DNA of 64,000 nt from Candidatus Uhrbacteria bacterium (GCA_016187485.1 JACPJO010000001.1:6195-70194), one strand, 5' to 3'; counted from the first letter of the stretch, positions 20,694 to 50,666 are shown. A program made the numbers and translations. The notes: generated from the sequence alone by a model not told the origin.

Positions 20694-21533
20694 ATGTCCG
20701 AGGAGCTTACGGATATTCTGGTAGAGTCAGGACTAAGTCCGAAAGAGGCGGCTATCTATCTTGCGGCGTGCGAACTTGGTCCCGCGGGTGTGCAAGAAAT
20801 TGCGAACAAGTCTGGTATCCAGCGCACGACAGTCTATGTCTGTCTTGAGACGCTGGAGAAAGAGGGGTTTATCTCTGGCGCAGAGGCAGCCGGCCGCAAA
20901 GTGTTTGTTGCTGCTCCGCCGGACCACGTGCTCTCTACAGTGAGAGCAAAACGCGAGGCGATTGTGCAGAAGGAGGAGAAACTTGCCTCTGCGCTGCCGC
21001 GTCTTACTGCTCTTTACAACGTGGAGGGACAAAAGCCGCAAGTTCTATTCATGGAGGGGCAGGAGGGACTCATGAGCCAGTTGGATGTTTTTGAAAAACT
21101 TGTCGGGCCCTTTATCCAGATCACCAATATTGACGACGCGGCAGAGGCGTTTAAGGGTCGAGAACAACGCCGCAAGGAGCATAAACAGCAATTGAAAGAG
21201 CAGGAAGTGGGCGGACGGACGCTGGTTGTTACGTCTAAGTCTCTTGAAGAACTACAGCTTCTTCCCATGCCCGTGGATCTGCGCTTTCTCCCGTTTGAAA
21301 ATTTTCCGATTCATGGAGAGGTGACGGTACGAGAGGACACGATTCTCCTCTATTCATTCCGCGGACAGACGTTCGTGACGATCATACGGAGTAAGACGAT
21401 GGCGGACACGTTGCGGAGTGTCTTCGAACTTGCGTGGAGCGGTGCGCGTATATATCCAGGCCTCTCTTCTCAAGAGCGTCTGGCTGGCTTTACTAAACCT
21501 CTCTCCGACCAAACTTTCCCAAAACAAAACTAA
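20694..21533 (+). CDS. TrmB-family transcriptional regulator
   Basis: N-terminal HTH LSPKEAAIYLAACELGPAGVQEIANKSGIQRTTVYVCLETLEKEGFI. Confidence 0.6.
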   Translation: MSEELTDILVESGLSPKEAAIYLAACELGPAGVQEIANKSGIQRTTVYVCLETLEKEGFISGAEAAGRKVFVAAPPDHVLSTVRAKREAIVQKEEKLASALPRLTALYNVEGQKPQVLFMEGQEGLMSQLDVFEKLVGPFIQITNIDDAAEAFKGREQRRKEHKQQLKEQEVGGRTLVVTSKSLEELQLLPMPVDLRFLPFENFPIHGEVTVREDTILLYSFRGQTFVTIIRSKTMADTLRSVFELAWSGARIYPGLSSQERLAGFTKPLSDQTFPKQN

Positions 21534-21574
21534 GTTTCGTTGTCGAAACTTAGTGTTGTTTAGTTTTGTCGTTT
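21525..21574. terminator. bidirectional intrinsic terminator (15-bp stem, 1 mismatch)
   Basis: CAAAACTAAGTTTCG-ttgt-CGAAACTTAGTGTTG, then TTTAGTTTTGTCGTTT; A-run on the other side. Marks the left edge of the GC-rich segment. Confidence 0.65.
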
Positions 21575-21691
21575 AAGGGGTGGGAGATCCGGCTCCTGTG
21601 GTCGAGCAGCGCTCGGCCACACGAGGGGGTCCTGAAGAAGAGTGTGCTTCAGGTCACGAACGGAGGGAGAAGGAACGGGGCGCCTGGGTGC

Positions 21692-22483
21692 CTAGTGAAG
21701 GACGAGGCTCGTCACCAGGTGGTCGAGCCCGATGGGCTGACGGTCGGGGTCGGACGCGACGGGGGCCACGGCGGCCTCGGGCTTCTTGTGCCCGTGCCGA
21801 CGGTTCCGGCGGCGGCCGTTGTTCTCGTCCTGCGCGACCGGGGACGCGGACTCGGCGGTCTTGGTGACCATCGGGGCCATACCCTTGACGGTCGCTTCGG
21901 TCTCGCTCTTGTCGGCGAGGAAAATCTCGAGGCGCCGGTCGGTCTCCTCCACCCACTGCGCGTTCTCGCGGCACGGATTTTCCCGCAGCGCTCGGAGCGC
22001 GTCCCGCTTGCGGCTGCGCAGCAGGGCCTCCATGTTCTCGAACGAGCGGCCGAAGACCTGCTCGAGGGACTCGCCGTCGCGGGCCACCCGCGTGCAGTAG
22101 GTGATGCGCAGCTGCTCCATGCGGTCGTCGCCGGCCGCGGCGATCTTCTCCTCGACGATCTTCTTGCGGTGCGCCTCGCTCTCGAGCCGCTCGGCGGCCG
22201 CCTTGATCTCGGCGTCCACCTGCGCGTGCTCCTCCGCGACGCGCTCGCAGAGCCGCGCCGCGAGCGAGGGGTTCACCTGGCGGAAGTGCTCGATGCTCTC
22301 GTTGAGGATCTGAAGCGGCGACCAGGTCGTCATCTCGGCGCCGCCGCCGTTGGCCGCCGCGAACCGCCGGAGCAGCCCTTCGATCCTCGTCATGTGCAGC
22401 GAGTCGCTGCACATGACGAGCTTGCGGGCGGTCTCGGCGAGCTCGCGGAACGAGGGCCGGGGGGAACGGGTGCTGTCGGACAT
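21692..22483 (-). CDS. hypothetical protein A of GC-rich island (Glu/Ala/Arg-rich, helical, basic tail)
   Basis: ATG at 22483-22481, TAG at 21694-21692; coding-like composition; no recognisable domain. Confidence 0.45.
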   Translation of the reverse strand: MSDSTRSPRPSFRELAETARKLVMCSDSLHMTRIEGLLRRFAAANGGGAEMTTWSPLQILNESIEHFRQVNPSLAARLCERVAEEHAQVDAEIKAAAERLESEAHRKKIVEEKIAAAGDDRMEQLRITYCTRVARDGESLEQVFGRSFENMEALLRSRKRDALRALRENPCRENAQWVEETDRRLEIFLADKSETEATVKGMAPMVTKTAESASPVAQDENNGRRRNRRHGHKKPEAAVAPVASDPDRQPIGLDHLVTSLVLH

Positions 22484-22826
22484 GTTCGTCTCCAGTGTGG
22501 CGCATCCGCGTGGGATGAACGCCGGGGGTTTGGGGTTCCTCACACCATTCTTAGGGGGTTGAGGGGTCCAGTGACATGCCGAAGCAGTATGGACCCATGA
22601 AACCCGGGCATGTGCATCAAGCGAGAAATCCCGGTTGAAGCACTTGGGTTTCACACCTCTCGTTCTGTCATATGGCAGTTCGGGAGGTGGGCTCTCTCTC
22701 CTCCTAAGAATGGTGGGAGGAACAATCTGGCCTGTGAGCGCGAGTGGGGACTCACGCGCACGGGGGGATTGGGGCCGGCGCAAGGTTTTCACCATGGGGC
22801 CCCGAGAAAGAAACTGATGGAAGGAA

Positions 22827-24110
22827 CTACTCGTCACGCAGCGCGCGGGGAGCGGCGCGGCGCGGACCCGGGGCGTTGCGCTTGGCAAGCGCTGCCTCGA
22901 TCTCGCGCTTCATCTCTTCGTCGACCGTGGGCGTGGGGGTGGGCTCTGCCACGGGGGTGCCGGCGGCGCGGCGGGCGGCGGCGCGGCGGGCGATGTCACC
23001 CATGACCGTGCTGCCGGCACTCGCACTCCGGTGGGCTTCCGAGTGCTCCCGCCGCTCCCGCACGAACTCACTCAACGCGTTCTTGGCGTCGAGCATGTCC
23101 ATGTGTGCGTTGGGGTGGCGGCTCTCGGTGTAGTGACGGATCCGACTTTCGAGGATCCGCTCCACGTCCCGCGGTTGGTAGCCGCGGATGCGGTCGAGGC
23201 TGTCCTCGGTCCGTCCGACCGCGACCTGCCACTTGCGCAGCCAGCCCCACAGGGGGTCCTGGTCGGCGCCGTCCACGTACGTCGTCCTCTCTTCTTCGCG
23301 TCCACGCTGCTCGGCCTTCTGCGCCCGTCGCTCTTCGCGTGCCTTGTTCCTGCGCTTCGTGTCCTCACCGAGGGCCTTCATGGCCTCCTCTTCGAGGTTG
23401 TTGAGGCAGGACCAGTCGCCGTTGCCGCTCACGACCTGCCGGGTCATGGTCTCCGCGATGGCCCAGTAGAGCTGGAGGGTGGAGACTTGCGCGGTCGGGG
23501 CGCCAATCCAGATCGGACGGCCGTCGCCGGCGTCCGTCTGCATGGCGGCCTCGAGGAGGAGCGTGCGAAGCGCGTTGCGGAGCTCGGGGTGCCGCTTTCG
23601 CAGCTCCACGATCCGGCGTGTCCTCCAGCCGCTCGTGATGCGGTGGTTCTTCCACCACGCCACGGGCTGGAGTGACGCCAGTCGCTCGCGCGGATCCTCA
23701 TCCGCCAGGGGCGGGTATTTCGTCTCCCACCACTGCGGCTGGTCCTCCGTCGGCTGGTCGTTGTGGGGGTCCACGGGGGTGAAGATGACGCGCGTGCCCT
23801 TGCAGGACGCTCGGCCCGTCACCTTCGTGCCCTCCACGCGCTCGCTCTGGATGGACTCGCCGACCTTGATTGCGACCTTCTCCTCGTAGTACGAGCTGGC
23901 CGCCAGCCATTCCTCGAAGCCCTGACGTTCGAGGAGGAGGGCTGCGGTTGGCCCGCTGCCCACTCCGCGGTCGGTGTCCCACGACTCCTCGTTGGGGTGG
24001 CAGACGATGTTCGCCACGCCACGGGTCAGGGGACGGATCTCTTCCCACCCCTGCTTCTCGCTGGCCGTCTGTGGCACGTTGCCGCGCCGGGAACTGCTGG
24101 TGCGTCCCAT
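22827..24110 (-). CDS. hypothetical protein B of GC-rich island (427 aa, Trp-rich N-terminal half, charged C-terminal half)
   Basis: AGGAGG 8 nt upstream of the ATG at 24110; no recognisable domain. Confidence 0.5.
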   Translation of the reverse strand: MGRTSSSRRGNVPQTASEKQGWEEIRPLTRGVANIVCHPNEESWDTDRGVGSGPTAALLLERQGFEEWLAASSYYEEKVAIKVGESIQSERVEGTKVTGRASCKGTRVIFTPVDPHNDQPTEDQPQWWETKYPPLADEDPRERLASLQPVAWWKNHRITSGWRTRRIVELRKRHPELRNALRTLLLEAAMQTDAGDGRPIWIGAPTAQVSTLQLYWAIAETMTRQVVSGNGDWSCLNNLEEEAMKALGEDTKRRNKAREERRAQKAEQRGREEERTTYVDGADQDPLWGWLRKWQVAVGRTEDSLDRIRGYQPRDVERILESRIRHYTESRHPNAHMDMLDAKNALSEFVRERREHSEAHRSASAGSTVMGDIARRAAARRAAGTPVAEPTPTPTVDEEMKREIEAALAKRNAPGPRRAAPRALRDE

Positions 24111-24347
24111 GGTCTCTAGCCTCCTGCGATGTTATCGCATGGTTCCGACTTTTTCCGCTTGGGACCATTCCCGCACGGAACAACTCGGTTGTTGTCGAAG
24201 ATCTTCGGCTTCTTTACTTTAACAAAAAAAGCCGTCCTTTGGGGAGAAACACTTTATCCTCAAAAGACGAATTTTTATTTTTTTGATGACGCGGGCTTCC
24301 CCAAGCTCTCGTCAGACCCCCAATTGGAAGGATCAAACTAACGGCGA

Positions 24348-24376
24348 AATGTATCACTTTTTGGGGCTTTTGTCAA
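24348..24376 (-). promoter_or_regulatory. sigma70-like promoter TTGACA-N17-TACATT reading towards island gene B
   Basis: -35 is rc of 24371-24376, -10 is rc of 24348-24353, exact 17-nt spacer; ~235-nt leader to the ATG. Confidence 0.45.
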
Positions 24377-24421
24377 TGGCCGACCTTCATCAATTCGCTT
24401 AAATAAGCCAACTTTTCTTTG

Positions 24422-24454
24422 TCACTAAGAGATCACTTAGTGATCACTAAGAGA
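24422..24454. repeat. operator-like alternating 11-mer triple (TCACTAAGAGA / TCACTTAGTGA / TCACTAAGAGA) containing the 16-bp perfect palindrome CTTAGTGATCACTAAG
   Basis: Read directly; one helical-turn periodicity; sits ~50-80 bp upstream of the -35 above. Confidence 0.45.
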
Positions 24455-24460
24455 GAATTT

Positions 24461-24492
24461 AAACAAAACAACCCAGATCGGGTTGTTTTGCC
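24461..24492. terminator. bidirectional intrinsic terminator
   Basis: AACAACCC-agatc-GGGTTGTT, then TTG/T-run; A-rich on the opposite side. Downstream of the 24560 gene. Confidence 0.55.
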
Positions 24493-24559
24493 CCCGCAGG
24501 AGGTCTCGGAGAGATCTTCTGTGGGGGGTGCGGCAGAGTGAGCCGCGAGAAGGGGTGGG

Positions 24560-25048
24560 CTAGTGCCCGTGGCCGCCGCCAGCAGCGGGGCCGTGATTGG
24601 CGTCGTGGTTGTCGTGACCGTGTCCCGTGCCGTGACGGGCAGCCTGCAGAGCACGCGCGCCTGCGCCGTGCACACGGCCCGCACGGCGCATGGCCTGCGC
24701 AGTGAGCACGGCACCCACGATGCCGAGGATACCGATCACCCACACCCACCAGTGCCATCCCACCAGTACGGTGAGGGCGTAGGCGACGAGCACGGGGTGG
24801 GCACTACGGTCGAGCCCGCGGGCGATGCCCTCTGCGTGCAGAGCGCTCGCGAGCCACCGGGCGATGGCGCCCGGGATCGCCCAATGCGCCCAAGCGAACG
24901 AGCACCATCCGAGCCACAGCATCTTGTTCGTGTGGCTGTACTCGAGGATGTCGAAGCCAGCCATCCAGAAACCCGCGTACCAATACCAGAGCGTGAGCAT
25001 CACGTGATCTTTCTCCGACGCATGGTCGGCGTTGGGGGTTATCGACAC
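24560..25048 (-). CDS. hypothetical membrane protein with His/Gly-rich C-terminal tail (GC-rich island)
   Basis: 3-4 TM helices; tail HGTGHGHDNHDANHGPAAGGGHGH; GC-rich like genes A and B. Confidence 0.45.
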   Translation of the reverse strand: MSITPNADHASEKDHVMLTLWYWYAGFWMAGFDILEYSHTNKMLWLGWCSFAWAHWAIPGAIARWLASALHAEGIARGLDRSAHPVLVAYALTVLVGWHWWVWVIGILGIVGAVLTAQAMRRAGRVHGAGARALQAARHGTGHGHDNHDANHGPAAGGGHGH

Positions 25049-25104
25049 AAGGATCTAAACGCCGGAGAATACTAAAAAAACGGCTTTTTGTCAAGTCAAA
25101 GTCG

Positions 25105-25113
25105 TGCTATAAT
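25105..25113 (+). promoter_or_regulatory. extended -10 element TGcTATAAT upstream of holB
   Basis: TATAAT ends 9 nt before the ATG at 25123, so this is probably a leaderless transcript. A divergent TTGACA-N16-TATTCT lies on the minus strand at 25066-25093. Confidence 0.4.
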
Positions 25114-25122
25114 CCCCGCACT

Positions 25123-31765: not shown

Positions 31766-31841
31766 GCCGTTGTAGCTCAGTTGGTAGAGCACGTCCATGG
31801 TAAGGACGAGGTCACCGGTTCGATCCCGGTCAACGGCTCCA
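31766..31841 (+). tRNA. tRNA-Thr(GGT)
   Basis: Hand-folded cloverleaf: acceptor GCCGTTG/CAACGGC, anticodon loop ATGGTAA, T-arm ACCGG-TTCGATC-CCGGT, encoded CCA. Confidence 0.85.
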
Positions 31842-31908
31842 CTCCGCTCTTTGAGCTTCGTTAGGAGTATTCCTAACGAGACCCGAAGGGTGAAGGGAGA
31901 CAACATAC

Positions 31909-31993
31909 GGGTAGGTACTCAAGTGGTCAACGAGGGCAGACTGTAAATCTGCTGGCTCCGCCTTCGAAGGTTCGAATCCTTCCCTACCCACCA
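31909..31993 (+). tRNA. tRNA-Tyr(GTA), long variable arm
   Basis: Acceptor GGGTAGG/CCTACCC, anticodon stem-loop GCAGA-CTGTAAA-TCTGC, T-arm GAAGG-TTCGAAT-CCTTC, CCA encoded. Confidence 0.85.
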
Positions 31994-32120
31994 GCTTCCT
32001 TTCCCGACAGACTTTCGTTCAGGCTTCTCCTTGTCGCCTTCACTTTCGTCTGTCGGCCGGTCGCTTTCGCCAAGCTCTGCTTGGCGAGGAAAGAAAAGAA
32101 TTGGGTCGGAATTGCTAAAC

Positions 32121-32225
32121 GCCGCCTTAGCTCAGCTGGTACCCGCCGTCCAGCAGCAAAGCTGCAGGACAGGCGGGCCCGCCGGCACGCCCGGAGGGCT
32201 GTGCGGCGGGGAGCAACGGTTTTGT
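32121..32225 (+). pseudogene. 5' tRNA-Thr-like fragment interrupted by a ~69-nt GC-rich hairpin inserted in the D-loop
   Basis: GCCGCCTTAGCTCAGCTGGTA [insert] GAGCAACGGTTTTGT copies positions 1-38 of the downstream tRNA-Thr(TGT), then diverges with no anticodon-stem partner. Confidence 0.45.
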
Positions 32226-32241
32226 GGGCTAGTTAGCACGT

Positions 32242-32317
32242 GCCGAGATAGCTCAGCTGGTAGAGCAACGGTTTTGTAAACCGTAGGTCACGGGTTCGAG
32301 TCCCGTTCTCGGCTCCA
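32242..32317 (+). tRNA. tRNA-Thr(TGT)
   Basis: Acceptor GCCGAGA/TCTCGGC, anticodon loop TTTGTAA, T-arm ACGGG-TTCGAGT-CCCGT, CCA encoded. Confidence 0.85.
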
Positions 32318-32527: not shown

Positions 32528-34243
32528 CTAATCGTGGCCAGTTACACGCATCACTTCCTCGAGCGAGGTGACACCATCGCGCAATTTGGCGAGCGCGCTC
32601 ACACGCAACGTCTTCATGCCACCGCGAACGGCTTCACGGCGAAGCTGCTCGGTCGTGGCACCGGCGGCGATCTGCTCGCACAGGTCGGAGGTGAGCGCCA
32701 TGATCTCGTAGATGGCGATGCGGCCCATGTACCCGGTCTCGTTGCAGGCGGGGCAGCCAACGGCGCGCAGGCAGGTGTACTCGTCTGACTCGTCAGACGG
32801 CACTCCCAGGTCGAGCAGGGTCTGGCGCGGAACGTCTTGGGGCTCGCGGCAGGTCTCGCACAGACGCCGCACGAGACGCTGGGCGATGATCATCCGCACG
32901 CACGCGGCGATCTCGAAGGCGGGCACACCCATCTCCGTCAGACGCGCGATCGTGCTCGGCGCATCGTTGGTGTGCAGGGTGGAGAGGACCAGATGCCCGG
33001 TCATCGCGGCCTGCACGGCCGTCTCCGCCGTCTCGAAGTCCCGGATCTCACCCACGAGGATCACGTCCGGATCCAGACGCAGGAACGACCGCAGTGCGGC
33101 GGCGAACGTGAGTCCTGCCTCCACGTTCACTTCCGTCTGCTTGATTCCGAAGATGTCGTACTCGACCGGCTGTTCCACGGTGAGGATGTTCGTCCCTACG
33201 ACGTTGATGTCGGAGAGCGCGGAGTAGAGCGTGGTCGTCTTGCCCGACCCCGTCGGACCCGTCACGAGGACCATGCCACTTGGAGCATGCAGGGCGGCAC
33301 GGAACCCCTCGAGCTCTGAGGACTCCAATCCGAGCTTGGTCATGTCGAGCTGGAGCTTGCTCTGGTCGAGAATCCGGATGACCACGTACTCGCCGTGCTG
33401 GGTGGGAATAACTCCCACGCGCAGGTCGATGTTTCTCCTGCCGCCGAGCTTGAGCTTGATCCGGCCATCCTGGGGCTTCCGGCGCTCGGAGATGTCCAGG
33501 CGCGCCAAGATCTTCACGCGTGAGATGATCGCGTTGCGGTATTTGAACGGAGGCTTGAGCACGTCGTAGAGCACTCCGTCGATGCGGAACCGGACGCGCA
33601 CCTGGCGCTCGAAGGGCTCGATGTGGATGTCGCTCGCGCGGTTCTTGATCGCGCTTGCCAGGATGAAGTTGACGAGCCTGATAACCGGTGCTTCGCCGGC
33701 GACTTCTTCAAGTTCTGCCGCGGTGACATCTTCCTCGGCATCCTTCTCCACTTCCAGTCCGTCGTCTGACAGCCCCAGTTCTTCCAGAGCGTTCTTGAAC
33801 GTCTTGGCGGAGAGGTAGCAACGATCGATGAGAGCGTTGATCTGGCTTTCGGGAGCCACCACGACTTCGAGCTTGTGGCCGGTCTTGACCTCGATGTCGC
33901 GTCGCGCGACGAGATCCCCTGGGTCGACCATGACAACGGTCAAAGTGTTGCCCGACAGACTCAGGGGCACCATGCGGTAACGGTCCACGAGCATGCGCGG
34001 AATGAGCTTCAACACCTTGGAATCCGGTGAAGCCTCCGAGAGGTCTACGGGCTGGACGTCGAACTGCCTCCTCAACGCGTGGACGATTGCGTTCTCGTCG
34101 ATCACGCCGTAGCGCACGAGCTCGTAGCTCAGAGGTCCGCCGGTCTGCTTGACGCGGTCCAGGGCTTCCTGGAGCTGAAGAGGAGAGATGTCCTTGTTGT
34201 GCACGAGCAACTCGCCAAGACGGGTATCAGAAGCTGATATCAT
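32528..34243 (-). CDS. pilB: Type IV pilus assembly / type II secretion ATPase PilB/GspE
   Basis: N-terminal GSPII_E domain; Walker A GPTGSGKTT; Asp box; His box; tetra-Cys CETC...CPAC. Confidence 0.85.
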   Translation of the reverse strand: MISASDTRLGELLVHNKDISPLQLQEALDRVKQTGGPLSYELVRYGVIDENAIVHALRRQFDVQPVDLSEASPDSKVLKLIPRMLVDRYRMVPLSLSGNTLTVVMVDPGDLVARRDIEVKTGHKLEVVVAPESQINALIDRCYLSAKTFKNALEELGLSDDGLEVEKDAEEDVTAAELEEVAGEAPVIRLVNFILASAIKNRASDIHIEPFERQVRVRFRIDGVLYDVLKPPFKYRNAIISRVKILARLDISERRKPQDGRIKLKLGGRRNIDLRVGVIPTQHGEYVVIRILDQSKLQLDMTKLGLESSELEGFRAALHAPSGMVLVTGPTGSGKTTTLYSALSDINVVGTNILTVEQPVEYDIFGIKQTEVNVEAGLTFAAALRSFLRLDPDVILVGEIRDFETAETAVQAAMTGHLVLSTLHTNDAPSTIARLTEMGVPAFEIAACVRMIIAQRLVRRLCETCREPQDVPRQTLLDLGVPSDESDEYTCLRAVGCPACNETGYMGRIAIYEIMALTSDLCEQIAAGATTEQLRREAVRGGMKTLRVSALAKLRDGVTSLEEVMRVTGHD

Positions 34244-40358: not shown

Positions 40359-41120
40359 ATGGAGGGTTCATCCATGAGGCCTATCGTTTTTCTCCCCGGG
40401 GCCTGGGGCAACCGAGATCAAGCCATCGGATACTGGACGCGACGCATCCGCGAAGGGCTTTCACCTCCTGCTTTGCACTCGTTCATTCCGATGGGCTACG
40501 ATCGCGATGCGCGCACGCAGAAGCAGGTCGTTCGGCACCTCATCGAGGGCATTCGGCGCAGTGTCGGCGTGTTCGAGATCCGATCCGGCGTGGACGTCAT
40601 CGCCTACTCGTGGGGGGCGTACTTGGCCTGCATGGTCGGCACGCTCCAGCCCGGAATCATCCGGCGTGCCGTCTTCATCTCGGGGATGCCGCACATCGGG
40701 TTCGGGCTCTGCAACACCCTGCGTTTTGCACGAGCGGCACCCAGCTGTCTCTTCGCGGCGCTGGGAGGCTCCTTCGCCCTGCGCAGCACGCAGGAGGTCC
40801 ACCGATGCTTCTTCCCCGGGGTCGTTCCAGATGACGGACTCGAGGGGGAGGTTCTCGCGCATATGCATCCCGAGCGCACCTCTGCGATCCTGCAGCTTCT
40901 GCCGGGACCGCAGCAGATACGGGCTGAATCGCCGATCTTCCGTGTGCTCGCTCTGCGCGCGCCAGACAGACAGGACGTCTTCAGCGCTGGCGCCAACTAC
41001 CAGGGAGGCGTGGACGTGACGTGCAAGGTCATGCCTGACTGGACACACGGGACAATCCTCACATCGGCGATGAGCGACGTGACACATCGTGTCATCGAGC
41101 CCTGGTTCACCGCTCGCTAG
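40359..41120 (+). CDS. alpha/beta-hydrolase fold protein
   Basis: Nucleophile elbow AYSWGA; GC-richer than neighbouring genes. Confidence 0.55.
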   Translation: MEGSSMRPIVFLPGAWGNRDQAIGYWTRRIREGLSPPALHSFIPMGYDRDARTQKQVVRHLIEGIRRSVGVFEIRSGVDVIAYSWGAYLACMVGTLQPGIIRRAVFISGMPHIGFGLCNTLRFARAAPSCLFAALGGSFALRSTQEVHRCFFPGVVPDDGLEGEVLAHMHPERTSAILQLLPGPQQIRAESPIFRVLALRAPDRQDVFSAGANYQGGVDVTCKVMPDWTHGTILTSAMSDVTHRVIEPWFTAR

Positions 41121-41137
41121 GACATCTTCTCTTCTCT

Positions 41138-41165
41138 GCCAGGCCTAAGGCCTGGTTTCTGTTTG
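41138..41165 (+). terminator. intrinsic terminator
   Basis: GCCAGGCC-taa-GGCCTGG followed by TTTCTGTTTG. Confidence 0.55.
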
Positions 41166-41212
41166 ACTTCCTCTTTTTGCTCGCGTACTGTCTTGCACGG
41201 AGGTTATGTCGG

Positions 41213-42052
41213 ATGACACGACAAGAAATCTGCGACAGTGTCGGACGTGAACACGCCAATACGGTCACGCGCCGTCTCGAGAAGGCGGGGCTTCCGTGCC
41301 CCCGTCTCGCGATTCAACTCGGTGACGGGTTCGAACTCTCCGAGTTCAAGCAGGTGCAGTCCTTCCCCCTTCGGGAGACCTTCTCGGGACTCCATGACCT
41401 TCCCGAGTTGGACCCGCCGCGCGCAATTTCCTACGGCTTCCTGCCCTGGGACATTCCGGTCCTGGTGACTCCTCGCATCTCGCTTCACGAGCGCAATCCC
41501 GTGACGGGTCGCGGTGACGCGCGCAACTGGGTGCGACTCCTCAACGACACCCTTGTCTTCGCAGGGTGCACGCGGCTTGTCATCCTCACGGAGGCGGGAA
41601 GCATCAATGCATTCATCCCGGGCGATCTCGTCACCGTGCGGAGCGTCTCCACCATCTTCATGCGCGACTGGCCGATGTACCAGGGGGAGGCCTGCCAGCC
41701 TGACCGGGCGCTTTCCCGGGAACTGGCATTGGTCGCCACGCAGGCATCCATTCAAGCGGACGTGGATCTCAAGATGGGCAAGCATGTGTACTGGCACGGG
41801 CCTGGCATCGAGACGGAGGACGACAAGCGCATCATCCGGCAGCTGACGGCGGCTGAGCTCATCAGTATGTCGGTGCTGCCCGACCTCGCGGTGTGGGCTT
41901 TGCATCCGGACACGGCCGTTCTTCCTCTGGCACTTGTCACGAACGGCATCAACAACCCGTTCAATCTCGAGCACAACCAGCGTCACGTGGCGGAAAGCAA
42001 AGAGAGGATCACACCGATCCTCTCGAAGCTCATCCCGCTCCTGGCACGCTAG
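41213..42052 (+). CDS. Purine nucleoside / MTA phosphorylase family protein (divergent motifs)
   Basis: RISLHE ~ GRfHlYEG; VILTEAGSINAFIPGDLV ~ lvTNAAGgLn..f.vGDlm; GGAGG 9 nt before the ATG at 41213. Confidence 0.45.
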   Translation: MTRQEICDSVGREHANTVTRRLEKAGLPCPRLAIQLGDGFELSEFKQVQSFPLRETFSGLHDLPELDPPRAISYGFLPWDIPVLVTPRISLHERNPVTGRGDARNWVRLLNDTLVFAGCTRLVILTEAGSINAFIPGDLVTVRSVSTIFMRDWPMYQGEACQPDRALSRELALVATQASIQADVDLKMGKHVYWHGPGIETEDDKRIIRQLTAAELISMSVLPDLAVWALHPDTAVLPLALVTNGINNPFNLEHNQRHVAESKERITPILSKLIPLLAR

Positions 42053-46886: not shown

Positions 46887-46960
46887 AGGGGTGTAGTGAA
46901 ATGGTATCACGAAGGTCTCCAAAACCTTTATTCTGGGTTCGAGCCCCAGCGCCCCTGCCA
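46887..46960 (+). tRNA. tRNA-Trp(CCA)
   Basis: Acceptor AGGGGTG/CGCCCCT (one G-U), anticodon loop CTCCAAA, T-arm CTGGG-TTCGAGC-CCCAG, CCA encoded. Confidence 0.8.
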
Positions 46961-46990: not shown

Positions 46991-47009
46991 ATGATAGACT
47001 GTTTCCTGT

Positions 47010-47627
47010 ATGAACAATGAGCGGGTGATCCAAATCTACGACAAGATCGCGGAAGAATATGCGCGGAGATACGATCCGATTGAATCCGAAGAGGACCTTG
47101 TCTTTCTAAAAACATTCTTAGACCATCTGAAACCCGGCTCTTATGTTGCCGATATCGGTTGTGGAACTGGCTACTCAACTGGATACTTCACCAAGCATGG
47201 AATGAGCGCCGAGGGCATTGACTTGTCCTCCAGCATGATTGCCATTGCAAAAAGAAATTATCCAGAGATTTCTTTTTCGGTTCAAGATCTAAGACTCTGG
47301 ATGCCGAAAAAATCTGTCAACGCAGTCTGGGCCGGGTACTGCCTTTTTCATCTTGAACAAGACGACTTTGAAAAAACGCTCGCTAACATTCGATCCTACC
47401 TAAAACCGGGAGGTGTATTCGGCCTTGTGATGCAGGAAGGCGAGGGACAGCTGGAAGCGGACGAACCACTTCTTCGAGGAGCAAAAATTTACATTCACCT
47501 GTATACAGAAGAAAGTCTCAGACAGATTTTGGAAAGGCATGGCTTTACCGTTGTTGAAGTGAAAAGAAAAAAACCCATGTATGCAATGGAATTTGCTTAT
47601 AACAAGTTGTTGATCATAGCGACATGA
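47010..47627 (+). CDS. Class I SAM-dependent methyltransferase
   Basis: Motif I VADIGCGTGYST; Methyltransf_11-like layout. Confidence 0.65.
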   Translation: MNNERVIQIYDKIAEEYARRYDPIESEEDLVFLKTFLDHLKPGSYVADIGCGTGYSTGYFTKHGMSAEGIDLSSSMIAIAKRNYPEISFSVQDLRLWMPKKSVNAVWAGYCLFHLEQDDFEKTLANIRSYLKPGGVFGLVMQEGEGQLEADEPLLRGAKIYIHLYTEESLRQILERHGFTVVEVKRKKPMYAMEFAYNKLLIIAT

Positions 47628-47974
47628 CCAGCGCAAAAGATCTCCTCGGTAATATAGTCGACGTCATAGTCGACCGTCCTCTCGGATCAAAACACCCAAC
47701 GCACGACTTTACGTACCTAGTGAATTACGGCTTCGTCCCAGGGACGCAATCGCCCGATGGAGAGGAACTCGATGCGTATCTTTTGGGTATCGATAAGCCA
47801 CTTCAAAACTTCCGTGGTCGGTGTGTCGCTATTATCCACCGAACCAACGACGATGACGACAAGCTGATCGTCGTACCGAGCGACATGACGATCACCGATG
47901 ACCAAATCCGTCAGGCGACTCATTTTCAAGAACAGTACTTCCACTCCGAAATTATTCGCACGCAAGAGTTCTAG
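47624..47974 (+). CDS. Inorganic pyrophosphatase-like protein, N-terminally truncated and divergent
   Basis: DRPLGS..H...YLVNYGFVPGTQSPDGEELDAYLLG...CVAIIHRTNDDDDKLIVVPSD parallels family I PPase (DR.l....YP.NYGfIP.T...DGDPLDvLvl...D.GE.D.KviaV); lacks the first ~50 residues. Confidence 0.5.
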   Translation: MTSAKDLLGNIVDVIVDRPLGSKHPTHDFTYLVNYGFVPGTQSPDGEELDAYLLGIDKPLQNFRGRCVAIIHRTNDDDDKLIVVPSDMTITDDQIRQATHFQEQYFHSEIIRTQEF

Positions 47975-48087
47975 CCTCACTCACTAAGCCCCTGTCACGT
48001 TGGTCGCGACCGACGTAGCCCGCTACGAAGCCGGCCGTTTCAAACGGGCGGTTTTGTGTTAGCATAGCTGCAAAGTTTCCTATCTGA

Positions 48088-48666
48088 ATGTTCCCGTCTA
48101 TGCGAACCAACCTATTGTATAAAATCTTGATAACAGGTTACTCATTTTCAATATTTTCAGAGGCGGTTATTTTACCCATTTATGCGGTGTTTGTGCAGGG
48201 CATTGGCGGTGATATTTTGGATGCAGCCGGGGCGATGGCTGTTTTTTTGATTACACAAGGATTATTCACGATTGTTACCCATCGTTTTTTCTGGGTTCAT
48301 CGGCACAGCATTCCCGTGATGGTCGGCGGCTGGGCGGTGTGGGTATCCGGGATTGCTATGTACCTCATGGTTTCCAACGTCTTGACTTTGTTTATTGCCC
48401 AAATATTTATCGCCCTAGGAAACGCCATTGCCGATCCGATATTCGACAAAGAATTAGCTCGCCACACCGACCATAAAAATGAAGAATTTGAATGGGGAGT
48501 TTTTGAAGGTAGCCAATCGATCATTCAAGGGGTAGCCGCTGTAATTGGAGGACTCATCGTTTCTTTATTTAGTTTTCAGGTTTTGATTTATCTCATGGTT
48601 GCGACAGCGACTGTTTCTCTTGGGATGATCATTTTTTATTACTCGAAAATCCGGAAAGATGTATAG
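48088..48666 (+). CDS. hypothetical polytopic membrane protein
   Basis: 6 predicted TM helices; no motif recognised. Confidence 0.4.
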   Translation: MFPSMRTNLLYKILITGYSFSIFSEAVILPIYAVFVQGIGGDILDAAGAMAVFLITQGLFTIVTHRFFWVHRHSIPVMVGGWAVWVSGIAMYLMVSNVLTLFIAQIFIALGNAIADPIFDKELARHTDHKNEEFEWGVFEGSQSIIQGVAAVIGGLIVSLFSFQVLIYLMVATATVSLGMIIFYYSKIRKDV

Positions 48667-48809
48667 ATGGAAACCGATTACATCACTCTGTGAAGACATG
48701 GCGATGGTTCTCACCTCGCTTGCGAACCCCTGCCACGAAAGCATCAGCTCAACCAGTCTGGTGTTTTTGTTTTCAGGTTGCTACCCTTCGATTGGATTTA
48801 ACCTCGTGT

Positions 48810-49382
48810 ATGGCTACCACACACAAAATACTCTTGTTCGGCAAAGCAGGGTCAGGCAAAGACACGCAGGCAGATTTGTTGGCCGCGCGGCTTGGGTTAG
48901 TCAATCTCTCCATGGGAGGCATTTTGCGCGCCGAAGTGGCAGGCGGATCGAAGACCGGCAAGAAAATCGCGCACTACTTGGAGCGAGGTGAGATCATTCC
49001 TCATGATATCGGCCCGCGATTGATGAGGTCCCATGTGTTGGAAGAGACCACGCAGCGGTCCGGATATGTTGTGTCGGGTTTTCCACGCACATTGGACAGC
49101 TTCCAAACTTACCTGGCGTTTGATGCGCCCACGGCACTCGTCGTATTACACGTGCCCGACGAAGTCGCACGCGATCGACTGATCGCTCGCAGGCGACACG
49201 ATGATTACGAGGAGGCAATCAACAAACGCTTAGAATTGTTTCGAGAAGTAGACGAGCAGACCATTGCGTGGGCCAAAACACATACCGCTATTCCGGTGTT
49301 TGAGGTCAATGGTGCCTTGTCTGTGAAACACGTGCACAAGACAATCCTTGAGATGGTCTCCGAATCGTTTACCAAAGAGTAA
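48810..49382 (+). CDS. Adenylate kinase family protein (short type, atypical P-loop GKAGSGKDTQ)
   Basis: ILLFGKAGSGKDTQADLLAARLG, LSMGGILRAEV, GYVVSGFPRTLDSF; start at MATTHKILLF, not at the tracked 48690. Confidence 0.55.
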   Translation: MATTHKILLFGKAGSGKDTQADLLAARLGLVNLSMGGILRAEVAGGSKTGKKIAHYLERGEIIPHDIGPRLMRSHVLEETTQRSGYVVSGFPRTLDSFQTYLAFDAPTALVVLHVPDEVARDRLIARRRHDDYEEAINKRLELFREVDEQTIAWAKTHTAIPVFEVNGALSVKHVHKTILEMVSESFTKE

Positions 49383-49447
49383 TTTTAAAACGTCCAGGAG
49401 CTGGTCATCTGTGCAAACGTTGGTATGTGTGTAGTAGAGGGCATGTT

Positions 49448-49481
49448 AAACAAGAGACTCTGTTGCCAGAGTCTCTTGTTT
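49448..49481. terminator. perfect 15-bp-stem bidirectional terminator
   Basis: AAACAAGAGACTCTG-ttgc-CAGAGTCTCTTGTTT with flanking A and T runs. Confidence 0.6.
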
Positions 49482-49507
49482 AATGAAATGAGATGTTTGA
49501 GGCCAAG

Positions 49508-49612
49508 TTACTTCTTCCCAATATACTTCACCAGTGCAATGATGCCGAGGACGACGAGGATCCAAAGCAAGAGAATCGTGAGTGAACCGAACCCGGAACC
49601 AAAGCCCATCAT
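49508..49612 (-). CDS. candidate 34-aa membrane peptide MMGFGSGFGSLTILLLWILVVLGIIALVKYIGKK
   Basis: Below the ORF-track cutoff; single TM plus KK tail; terminator 49448-49481 lies directly downstream on the minus strand. Confidence 0.25.
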   Translation of the reverse strand: MMGFGSGFGSLTILLLWILVVLGIIALVKYIGKK

Positions 49613-49703
49613 GTTTGAATAAAAACTCATCATAGAGATGTGAAAAAATGAATAAGAGAGTGGAATAAGAACCATTATACTCTTCATTCATCAAAGACGA
49701 GAG

Positions 49704-50666
49704 TCAAGGGAGGAGGTAGTAGAGACGGCGTGTCCCCGATTTAGTAAGCAGGAATCTTTGTACTTCCAGCTCGTGCAAATGAAACAAAAGGGAAAATGTG
49801 CTTGTTTTTCCCGCACGAAGGGGATCTGACCCAGAAATACTTCGACAGACAAGATACCCACCGAACGGTTCGCACAACCAGTCGGAATTTCCCGCGCCTT
49901 TCCCATTGATGTCTACGTCCGTGATTACCTGTTCCGGGAGATTCTTGAGATCTATACCGAGAGCAACAACGCCGTTTTCTTGGTTTTGTATGGAAATGCG
50001 CTCCTCCACGACATTTGGTTCGAAATACGGCGCACGTTCCCTGCTGAATCGAATGAAGGGTGCTTGAGTCCACCGAACGTGATTACTCATTGGCAAAAAC
50101 GATGAGAGGTCGGCATCGTCCGTGATTTTTTCTTTTGCTTTATCTACGGCCCATGTTGCCGCTTCAAAACCGAACGTTGCAGCCAGAAACGAGCCGAGAC
50201 CAAGAAAGCCACGAAACCATCTCCCGATTTTTCCGAAAACACCTGGCCGAATGTTTGATGTTGATGCAAGAGGGCGCAACGGTTTGTTGTGCTCTGCGAG
50301 TTCCTTAATCATCTTCTCGCGCAGACGTGCCTCATCGGTGAGAGGGGGATGTGCAGGCTTGCCGGTGAGATTTTCAAGCTGTCTCGTTAGCCGGGCTTTT
50401 TCCAGCAGGAGGTCCTGTATTTTCTTAATGACACGTTTTGACGAAAACCTGTCAAAAAACGTACGATGGACGTTCTTATTATCGCGGATGTAGCGTTGCA
50501 GAGTCTCTTCGTAGTGGGGGCCGTAGGATTGTAGGCGTCTTTCGCACTTCACCAATGTGCGACGAATAATCTGCTCGTCACTTTGTCCAAGCAGACGCCA
50601 AAATTTTCGCGCAAGCCACTCAACGAACGATTCCTTCGCCGGAATGGTTGGTTTGACACTCGGCAT
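49704..50666 (-). CDS. hypothetical protein with central TM segment
   Basis: Coiled-coil N-half, TM FLGLGSFLAATFGFEAATWAV, globular C-half; no recognisable domain. Confidence 0.4.
   Translation of the reverse strand: MPSVKPTIPAKESFVEWLARKFWRLLGQSDEQIIRRTLVKCERRLQSYGPHYEETLQRYIRDNKNVHRTFFDRFSSKRVIKKIQDLLLEKARLTRQLENLTGKPAHPPLTDEARLREKMIKELAEHNKPLRPLASTSNIRPGVFGKIGRWFRGFLGLGSFLAATFGFEAATWAVDKAKEKITDDADLSSFLPMSNHVRWTQAPFIRFSRERAPYFEPNVVEERISIQNQENGVVALGIDLKNLPEQVITDVDINGKGAGNSDWLCEPFGGYLVCRSISGSDPLRAGKTSTFSLLFHLHELEVQRFLLTKSGTRRLYYLLP

Follow-up and report, generated by a model that had tools for sequence, protein, structure and literature searches.

A compositionally atypical block of three orphan genes, with a conserved terminator-bearing leader, between a TrmB-like gene and holB in a groundwater Uhrbacteria genome

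Genes and signals between the TrmB-like gene and holB

In the metagenome-assembled genome (MAG) of a groundwater Candidatus Uhrbacteria bacterium, a member of the candidate phyla radiation (CPR), a compositionally atypical block of three orphan genes (21525-25120) is located between a gene for a TrmB-like regulator and holB. The block was analyzed within a 64,000-nt stretch of one contig (GCA_016187485.1, JACPJO010000001.1:6195-70194), hereafter called the window, and positions are counted from its first nucleotide. The three genes, designated A, B and C, lie on the minus strand, and their products are identical to HYW18_00155, HYW18_00160 and HYW18_00165 of the Uhrbacteria MAG. The surroundings consist of CPR housekeeping genes, namely those for glycosyltransferases, MreB, the TrmB-domain regulator, holB, frr, a class II aminoacyl-tRNA synthetase and tpiA. 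The product of the TrmB-like neighbor contains the TrmB winged-helix domain (PF01978, E = 9e-12). The features of the block are given below, with the G+C content at third codon positions (GC3) for each gene.

21522-21561, both strands: left border hairpin with 18-nt arms, overlapping the stop codon of the TrmB-like gene (21531-21533)
21577-21691, minus strand: 3' untranslated region of A, with a hairpin at 21631-21653 that is partly kept in the related contig L008
21692-22483, minus strand: gene A, 263 aa, GC3 0.955
22386-22420: perfect palindrome (17+17 nt) within A
22484-22826, minus strand: B-A spacer, 343 nt, stable fold
22827-24110, minus strand: gene B, 427 aa with 14 Trp, GC3 0.88
24111-24341, minus strand: 5' leader of B, about 230 nt, with the conserved part at 24150-24308
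24348-24376, minus strand: promoter-like site of the B-A unit (TTGACA, 17 nt, TGnTACATT)
24422-24454: three phased 11-bp repeats with overlapping palindromes
24464-24548, minus strand: 3' untranslated region of C, with three hairpins, the last of which (24464-24490) is a predicted terminator
24560-25000, minus strand: gene C, 146 aa (162 aa from GTG 25048), GC3 0.81
25066-25094, minus strand: promoter-like site of C (TTGACA, 17 nt, TATTCT)

The minus-strand frames of all three genes were confirmed as coding by their position-specific G+C content (GC1/GC2/GC3), which was 0.69/0.47/0.955 in A, 0.68/0.52/0.88 in B and 0.69/0.53/0.81 in C. Alternative open reading frames (ORFs) overlapping A, B and C had no such periodicity, and one of these was chosen by the gene caller on some contigs. 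An initial annotation of this DNA, made from the sequence alone, had thus placed the three frames correctly. For C, the frame that it gave stands, but a start at ATG 25000 or GTG 25003 is likelier than the one at 25048 (a GGAG lies upstream, and gene callers give 146 aa). Upstream of its ATG, gene A has a further 135 codons without a stop (frame 21692-22888), which run through the entire B-A spacer and the adjoining 62 nt of B. A longer, 398-aa form of A was nevertheless rejected: the frame is open in the spacer, yet it has no codon periodicity there, and the upstream stretch is therefore probably not translated. Codons 22-33 of A contain a 35-nt palindrome (22386-22420, 17-nt arms around a 1-nt center) that encodes LVMCSDSLHMTR, is far beyond chance expectation and has local fold z-scores of -3.1/-3.7.

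The left border hairpin has T-runs on either side, suggesting that it is a bidirectional terminator on which the TrmB-like gene (plus strand) and A (minus strand) converge. The internal hairpin at 24464-24490 has a perfect 11-bp stem and a T-run on the minus strand only, which suggests a one-way terminator for C. The two hairpins had been described at the outset as bidirectional terminators, a description that is kept for the left one and withdrawn for the internal one. The near-consensus promoter and the operator-like repeat that had been placed within the block are both present. The 8-mer ACTTAGTG, said to link the boundary hairpin to the operator palindrome, occurs in two copies in the window, a count equaled in 9 of 100 shuffled sequences, and the link is best put down to chance.

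On the right, an extended -10 element of holB, TGCTATAAT (25105-25113, plus strand), stands back to back with the promoter of C and ends 9 nt before the holB ATG; the holB mRNA is probably leaderless or almost so. Two short words recur in the block. The octamer GGGGTGGG has eight copies in the window (1.9 expected), five of them in the island (21577, 22936, 24044, 24552 and 24794), and the 10-mer AAGGGGTGGG occurs near the left border of the island (21575) and again directly past the stop codon of C (24550). The octamer was rejected as a signal, its enrichment fitting the G+C content and the Pro/Thr codons, and the recurrence of both words is probably an effect of composition.

Composition and relatives of the three genes

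The G+C content of the block is 64.3%, compared with a mean of 54.3% (standard deviation 2.5, maximum 59.3%) among 267 segments of equal length, which corresponds to z = 3.9. Its tetranucleotide profile, corrected for base composition, correlated with that of the rest of the window at r = 0.65, against 0.87 ± 0.04 (minimum 0.73) for the other segments, and no other part of the window deviates as far. Both measures agree with the initial impression, based on hand counts, that this DNA is GC-richer than its surroundings. At 200-nt resolution, values of 0.65-0.74 were confined to three stretches matching the ORFs of A, B and C, and the G+C content between them was 43-59%. Among the spacers, it was 0.58 at 21534-21691, 0.59 at 22484-22826, 0.47 at 24111-24559 and 0.48 at 25001-25122, and the AT-rich leader of B is conserved at the sole other B locus. 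Since the excess is limited to the ORFs and the AT-rich leader is conserved, the "island" is not uniformly GC-rich DNA.

The codon usage of the three genes is similarly set apart. Approximately 60 other ORFs of at least 120 aa in the window have GC3 values mostly of 0.46-0.69 (about 0.58), and three stand at 0.76-0.82. The fraction of C in two-fold Y-ending codons is 0.87-0.98 in the island genes and the fraction of G in two-fold R-ending codons is 0.83-1.0, compared with about 0.3-0.6 for both in the host. The amino acid composition is also shifted, the GARP residues being raised and the FYMINK residues lowered by 1-3 standard deviations. The genes for ribosomal proteins L10 and L7/L12 (8193-9116) have an ordinary GC3 (0.59-0.62), a C fraction of 0.54-0.60 in two-fold Y-ending codons and a G fraction of 0.44-0.53 in two-fold R-ending codons, which argues against an expression-driven codon bias. 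Translational selection is disfavored as the cause of the high GC3, because these two genes do not prefer G over A in their two-fold codons.

Three other spots in the window stand out. The gene for a PilB-like type II/IV secretion ATPase (PF00437, E = 1e-136; 32528-34243, minus strand) has a GC3 of 0.82 and a host-like amino acid composition, and it directly follows a tRNA-Thr/Tyr/Thr cluster (31766-32317); it may be a second acquired gene or a sign of a gene-specific GC3 drive. Adjacent genes for an alpha/beta hydrolase and a PNP_UDP_1 phosphorylase (40359-42052, plus strand), with Pfam matches that are weak and below the gathering cut-offs, have GC3 values of 0.76-0.77 and constitute a third GC3-rich spot. 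The lowest G+C content of the window (0.43-0.47) is found at 47000-50000 (ORFs 47010-47627 and 48088-48666), beside a tRNA-Trp gene (46887-46960), and this stretch may be another atypical block.

Searches of Pfam, PHROGs, NCBIfam, PADLOC and PDB gave no significant match for A, B or C: nothing fell below E = 0.007 in PHROGs or below E = 0.1 in profile searches of PDB, in line with the initial statement that none has a recognizable domain. An exhaustive HMMER search of 1.84 billion representative proteins returned a single relative of B (E = 1e-38), the 406-aa protein P0005, which is 32-39% identical to B and is encoded on L009, a 1.44-kb Joint Genome Institute (JGI) contig of no assigned origin. 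B and P0005 are co-linear from a basic N-terminus to a C-terminal ...RDE and share the invariant block DQDPxWGWLRKWQV. A word-index search with B found only B itself, and scans for the B locus in GTDB species genomes, JGI metagenomes and IMG/VR found L009 only. The search with A returned one partial relative, on contig L008, and no match in IMG/VR; the search with C returned none. P0005 itself, like an additional orphan encoded on L008, had no significant match in Pfam or PHROGs. Beyond L008 and L009, no homolog was found among the 1.84 billion representative proteins, 5.8 billion clusters and the phage and plasmid records searched. A, B and C are true orphans.

Structure prediction by AlphaFold2 started from two-sequence alignments. 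The model of B was unusable, with a predicted local distance difference test score (pLDDT) of 44.6; that of A (pLDDT 60) was all-helical with a disordered basic tail, and Foldseek found nothing for it in PDB below E = 0.97, only generic coiled coils. A ends in a basic/His tail, NGRRRNRRHGHKK, and C contains 12 Trp and 13 His in its 146 residues, with a hydrophobic segment at 68-107 and the tail HGTGHGHDNHDANHGPAAGGGHGH. We predict that A is elongated and helical, that B is soluble and that C, which is small and has a tail rich in His and Gly, resides in the membrane. As a guess, the three might form a membrane-associated complex, possibly metal-related in view of the His-rich tails.

The relative of A is found on a 2.4-kb contig (L008, also recorded as L027) of a MAG labeled Kerfeldbacteria, which ends in the same TrmB-like gene (93.5% identity over 185 nt). 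The homolog of A lies downstream of this gene, with 78% identity in protein and 83.5% in DNA, and the homology between the window and L008 breaks at 21527-21576. The presence of A at the same place in both contigs implies that the block is older than the split of the two lineages and, as judged from this sequence comparison, is not a recent or strain-specific integration. According to the initial annotation, homologs at the same locus bearing ordinary annotations would speak against an acquired element; the homolog of A is indeed at the same locus in L008, but its annotation there is "hypothetical" and not an ordinary one. A synteny scan based on the TrmB-like gene returned the L008 contig again and two distant TrmB-domain loci (24% identity).

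Between A and the TrmB-like gene, L008 holds 1.55 kb that the window lacks. One gene in this segment (680/722-1354, plus strand) encodes an extra GC3-rich orphan (GC3 0.86, 210-224 aa) that has a membrane anchor at its N-terminus as well as a coiled coil and is missing from the window. Another (1462-2187), likewise not in the window, encodes an IS200-like Y1 transposase of 232 aa (PF01797, E = 1.8e-5) and is bracketed by the 19-nt hairpins CTCGTCACTTGGTGACGAG and CTCGTCACCAAGTGACGAG. The GC3 of the Y1 gene is host-like (0.42), which points to a separate insertion, and the gene looks like an insertion at a permissive site, apart from the block. A tblastn search of the window with the Y1 protein gave nothing below E = 2, and the palindromes of the window differ from the hairpins of L008.

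The divergence of A from its homolog is unusual in both rate and distribution. Between the window and L008, the proportion of nonsynonymous differences (pN) is 0.132 in A and 0.014 in the tail of the TrmB-like gene, and the proportion of synonymous differences (pS) is 0.15 and 0.22, respectively, so that A evolves approximately 10 times faster than the TrmB tail at the protein level, with an overall dN/dS of 0.86. The differences form a mosaic: a 138-nt block has two differences and 0 of 32 synonymous changes, and the adjoining block has a pS of 0.37 and a pN of 0.28 (binomial P = 6e-9), with 60-nt bins alternating between 97-100% and 57-58% identity. Such uneven synonymous divergence suggests recombination between diverged alleles or a local nucleotide constraint; it does not fit the drift of a pseudogene.

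Leader, repeats and spacer of the predicted B-A unit

The promoter-like site of the B-A unit (TTGACA-17-TGATACATT, 24376-24348, minus strand) is near-consensus and is followed by a leader of which about 150 nt (24150-24308) align with the region upstream of P0005. The two leaders are 82% identical at aligned bases (78% in blastn, which includes gaps; E = 1.6e-29). Within conserved residues of B and P0005, 52% of the four-fold sites differ, saturation being 60%. A leader identity of 82% despite proteins that are only 32-39% identical and four-fold sites that are near saturation suggests strong purifying selection on the leader.

From the promoter towards B, the conserved leader contains a hairpin with GGGG in its loop, a linker rich in A, a 13-bp hairpin (24233-24269), a U7 tract (24224-24230) and two more conserved hairpins. 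The 13-bp hairpin and the U7 tract have the form of a canonical intrinsic terminator, conserved in L009. Ten of the 26 substitutions in the leader fall in predicted stems, and all ten keep the pairing, four as double compensatory changes; controls with the register slid by 1-3 columns contained no compensatory pairs. This covariation is suggestive of a conserved RNA structure. No promoter was found between the terminator and B, either in a promoter scan or on reading, which suggests that B and A are controlled by termination versus read-through; it is equally possible that the promoter-proximal leader yields a small RNA of its own, approximately 115 nt long. Leader-peptide attenuation was rejected, as the 43-codon frame in the leader of the window is broken by indels in L009. 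None of the 4227 families of Rfam 15 matched the region in the window at E <= 10, or L008 and L009 at E <= 1. A search of IMG/VR with the leader and spacer motifs gave one chance match, in a coding region of the high-GC phage contig L030.

Upstream of the promoter, three 11-bp repeats, TCACTAAGAGA / TCACTTAGTGA / TCACTAAGAGA (24422-24454), lie about 100 nt from the inferred start site of the B transcript and beside an AT-rich stretch. They contain two palindromes, GATCAC-N3-GTGATC (24431-24445) and CTTAGTGATCACTAAG (24436-24451). By analogy with known operators of this family, the repeats are a candidate binding site for the adjacent TrmB-like protein, which we offer as a lead only.

The 343-nt spacer between B and A has no codon periodicity and folds with z = -7.3 relative to shuffled sequence. 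For its 199-nt core, the fold z-score is -7.6 (minus strand) and -9.8 (plus strand). Three hairpins in the core (22535-22723) are enclosed by a 24-nt inverted repeat (22535-22558 / 22700-22723; 22 of 24 positions complementary), and this closing stem is present in both the minimum-energy and the centroid fold. A has its own Shine-Dalgarno sequence and there is no terminator between B and A, so that an intercistronic structure within one mRNA is the simplest reading. By analogy, the stem is a plausible target of a double-strand-specific RNase. No homologous copy of the spacer was found. Two other readings of the spacer were rejected: an integron attC site, because its outer bases are, by eye, GTT...AAC, the reverse of attC R''/R', and a miniature inverted-repeat transposable element (MITE), because there is no second copy in the window and no target duplication.

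Origin of the block and comparison with known systems

We hypothesize, with confidence only slightly above even, that the block, with its three lineage-restricted orphans, was acquired laterally long ago as an accessory cassette and became fixed between the TrmB-like gene and holB. The GC1/GC2/GC3 pattern, the amino acid shift and the outlying tetranucleotide signature fit a foreign origin. In addition, B and P0005 both have a GC3 of 0.87-0.88 despite four-fold sites that are nearly saturated, as would be expected if the B family had for the most part evolved against a high-GC background. The initial proposal of a horizontally acquired small element therefore survives in its foreign-like composition, its orphan genes and its own promoters and terminators, but the acquisition was not recent and the hallmarks of integration are missing.

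Several observations weigh against such a cassette. The G+C excess ends at the borders of the ORFs: the spacers around C (47-48%) are below the window mean, and the remaining two (58-59%) are only slightly above it. Mobility genes, att repeats and a tRNA target are lacking, and no donor was identified: about 15 billion proteins contained no homolog of A, B or C from a high-GC organism, a phage or a plasmid. The sole relatives are L008, from a CPR MAG, and L009, a 1.4-kb contig; the synteny scan revealed no empty TrmB-holB site, and the only relative in that scan (L008/L027) carries the block. The codon usage of the PilB-like gene correlates at 0.96 with that of A, B and C together, and PilB is normally a core CPR gene. 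Finally, the leader covariation is drawn from two sequences (n = 2), with a shuffle control that equaled the observed value in 39 of 500 trials.

Alternatively, A, B and C could be native, lineage-specific CPR genes whose GC3 has been raised and kept high in place by GC-biased gene conversion at a recombination hotspot or by mRNA or codon selection, with no transfer, an explanation that we regard as unlikely. It accounts for an excess that is found within ORFs only, with spacers near the window mean or, in two cases, below it; for the same codon signature in the PilB-like ATPase, the hydrolase and the phosphorylase; and for a block held in common with the sister lineage at the same locus. The known relatives are all in a CPR-like context or one of no assigned origin, the two copies of B keep a GC3 of about 0.87 with synonymous sites nearly saturated, and the mosaic in A indicates recombination. 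However, the ribosomal protein genes have no such bias, and the preference for G-ending two-fold codons is untypical of translational selection. Biased gene conversion should enrich the spacers too, and its effect on GC3 in bacteria amounts to only a few points. Furthermore, the amino acid composition is shifted as well, and the tetranucleotide profile remains an outlier after correction for base composition.

A further and quite unlikely possibility is that the block, far from being an inert leftover of transfer, is a CPR-restricted, fast-evolving and recombining module in which an extreme GC3 is actively maintained within a genome of about 55% G+C and expression proceeds via two undescribed structured RNAs, namely the leader, conserved across a protein divergence of about 65%, and the 190-nt three-hairpin domain of the spacer with its 24-bp stem. 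If this were true, the block would contain new RNA families and three new protein families, and it would reveal a gene-specific compositional drive in CPR bacteria.

We consider it improbable that the block is what is left of a small mobile element (a plasmid, a satellite or transposon cargo) that had integrated, with a role of B in replication or integration and with the 11-bp repeats as iterons or an origin. The three phased repeats beside an AT-rich stretch, the block's own promoters and terminators, and the Y1 transposase gene, 19-nt hairpins and GC3-rich orphan that L008 holds between A and the TrmB-like gene are consistent with such an element. In contrast, the Y1 gene, with its host-like GC3, is a separate insertion, and the window encodes no integrase, transposase, Rep, relaxase or partition domain. 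The nearest tRNA gene starts at 31766, 6.6 kb away, leaving no tRNA adjacent to the block. No repeats of at least 9 nt are shared by the borders, the longest common k-mer being 8 nt, a length equaled in 182 of 300 shuffles. The first reading had likewise seen no integrase, transposase or att duplication in the block. No phage or viral similarity was detected among 2.9 million viral contigs and 50,697 phage records (IMG/VR and INPHARED), and C, the only gene searched there, had no match among 72,556 plasmid records. The assemblies of 12 sequencing runs also lacked any presence/absence polymorphism.

The latter assemblies were Logan assemblies of 12 SRA runs (SRR12113383-SRR12113433), retrieved by matching the exact protein sequences of B, the TrmB-like protein and holB, and they carry one or both borders of the block at 100% identity. 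Ten Logan contigs compared by blastn were 100% identical at the junctions that they reached, one having two mismatches further downstream; at least five contigs cover the entire block, and none from the 12 runs has an empty site or a different neighbor. An assembly chimera or binning contaminant, at which the abrupt change in composition and the several short Logan contigs ending inside the GC-rich genes might hint, is therefore excluded for all practical purposes by the left and/or right junctions reproduced in 12 per-run assemblies, by the contigs spanning the block and by the same left junction in the related MAG.

If the block is an acquired cassette, the coding sequences of A, B and C would bear the marks of prolonged evolution at a genomic G+C content of about 70%, and the cassette would have become fixed in the groundwater Uhrbacteria lineage and its closest sampled relative. 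The block is predicted to be expressed as two units. C alone would be transcribed on the minus strand from a sigma-70-type promoter and ended by the 24464-24490 hairpin. B and A would be transcribed together from a second sigma-70-type promoter, starting about 230 nt upstream of B and passing the leader terminator, and their level would probably be set by premature termination versus read-through, in an attenuation or riboswitch-like manner. Cleavage of the 24-bp spacer stem by a double-strand-specific RNase could uncouple the B and A cistrons, and the phased repeats may be bound by a dimeric regulator, for which the TrmB-like protein is one candidate. It is generally assumed that CPR bacteria live attached to other cells, few of which are known; the codon signature of about 70% G+C in the block and in two or more further spots of the window could point to donors or hosts with which these Uhrbacteria have contact. 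To our knowledge, few regulatory RNAs have been described in CPR bacteria, and the leader and the spacer structure may each represent a new class of them.

Frequent genomic islands and gene transfers have been reported for Patescibacteria from groundwater (PMC12455944), in keeping with a foreign origin of the block. The block resembles these islands in being a short stretch of hypothetical genes with atypical G+C and oligonucleotide content in a streamlined CPR genome from an aquifer. It differs from them in having no mobility gene, tRNA target, flanking repeats or identifiable donor, in a G+C excess restricted to the ORFs and in its occurrence in a sister lineage as well. An islet of orphan genes in a Patescibacteria genome is in itself an expected kind of feature.

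The 11-bp repeats are comparable to TrmB operators, for which the Thermococcales glycolytic motif (TGM) of the TrmB family, TATCAC-N5-GTGATA (PMC4706686), provides a reference. As in these operators, ATCAC / GTGAT half-sites lie beside a gene for a TrmB winged-helix protein. Unlike the TGM, whose consensus is derived from Thermococcales, the repeats have a spacing of N3 rather than N5 and different outer bases, and they lie about 100 nt upstream of the start site in a bacterial host.

The B leader has the order of elements found in terminator-based 5' leaders, such as attenuators and riboswitch platforms: a promoter, a structured leader, a terminator hairpin with U7 and an ORF with its own Shine-Dalgarno sequence. 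A possible competing pairing, UUGGGGA / UCCCCAA, would also be in keeping with attenuators and riboswitch platforms. The leader departs from the attenuators and riboswitches described so far in that it belongs to no Rfam class and that its conservation, as seen in two sequences, runs about 75 nt past the terminator.

Intercistronic stem-loops cleaved by RNase III are found in the early region of phage T7 and in the rpsO-pnp operon of Escherichia coli. The B-A spacer is similar in that a long, near-perfect stem (24 bp) stands between two cistrons of a predicted operon. In contrast to the T7 and rpsO-pnp stems, it encloses a 141-nt domain of three hairpins, and its plus strand folds better than its minus strand. 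Compared with these systems, what is new at this locus is the conserved, terminator-bearing leader of B and the exceptionally structured spacer between B and A.

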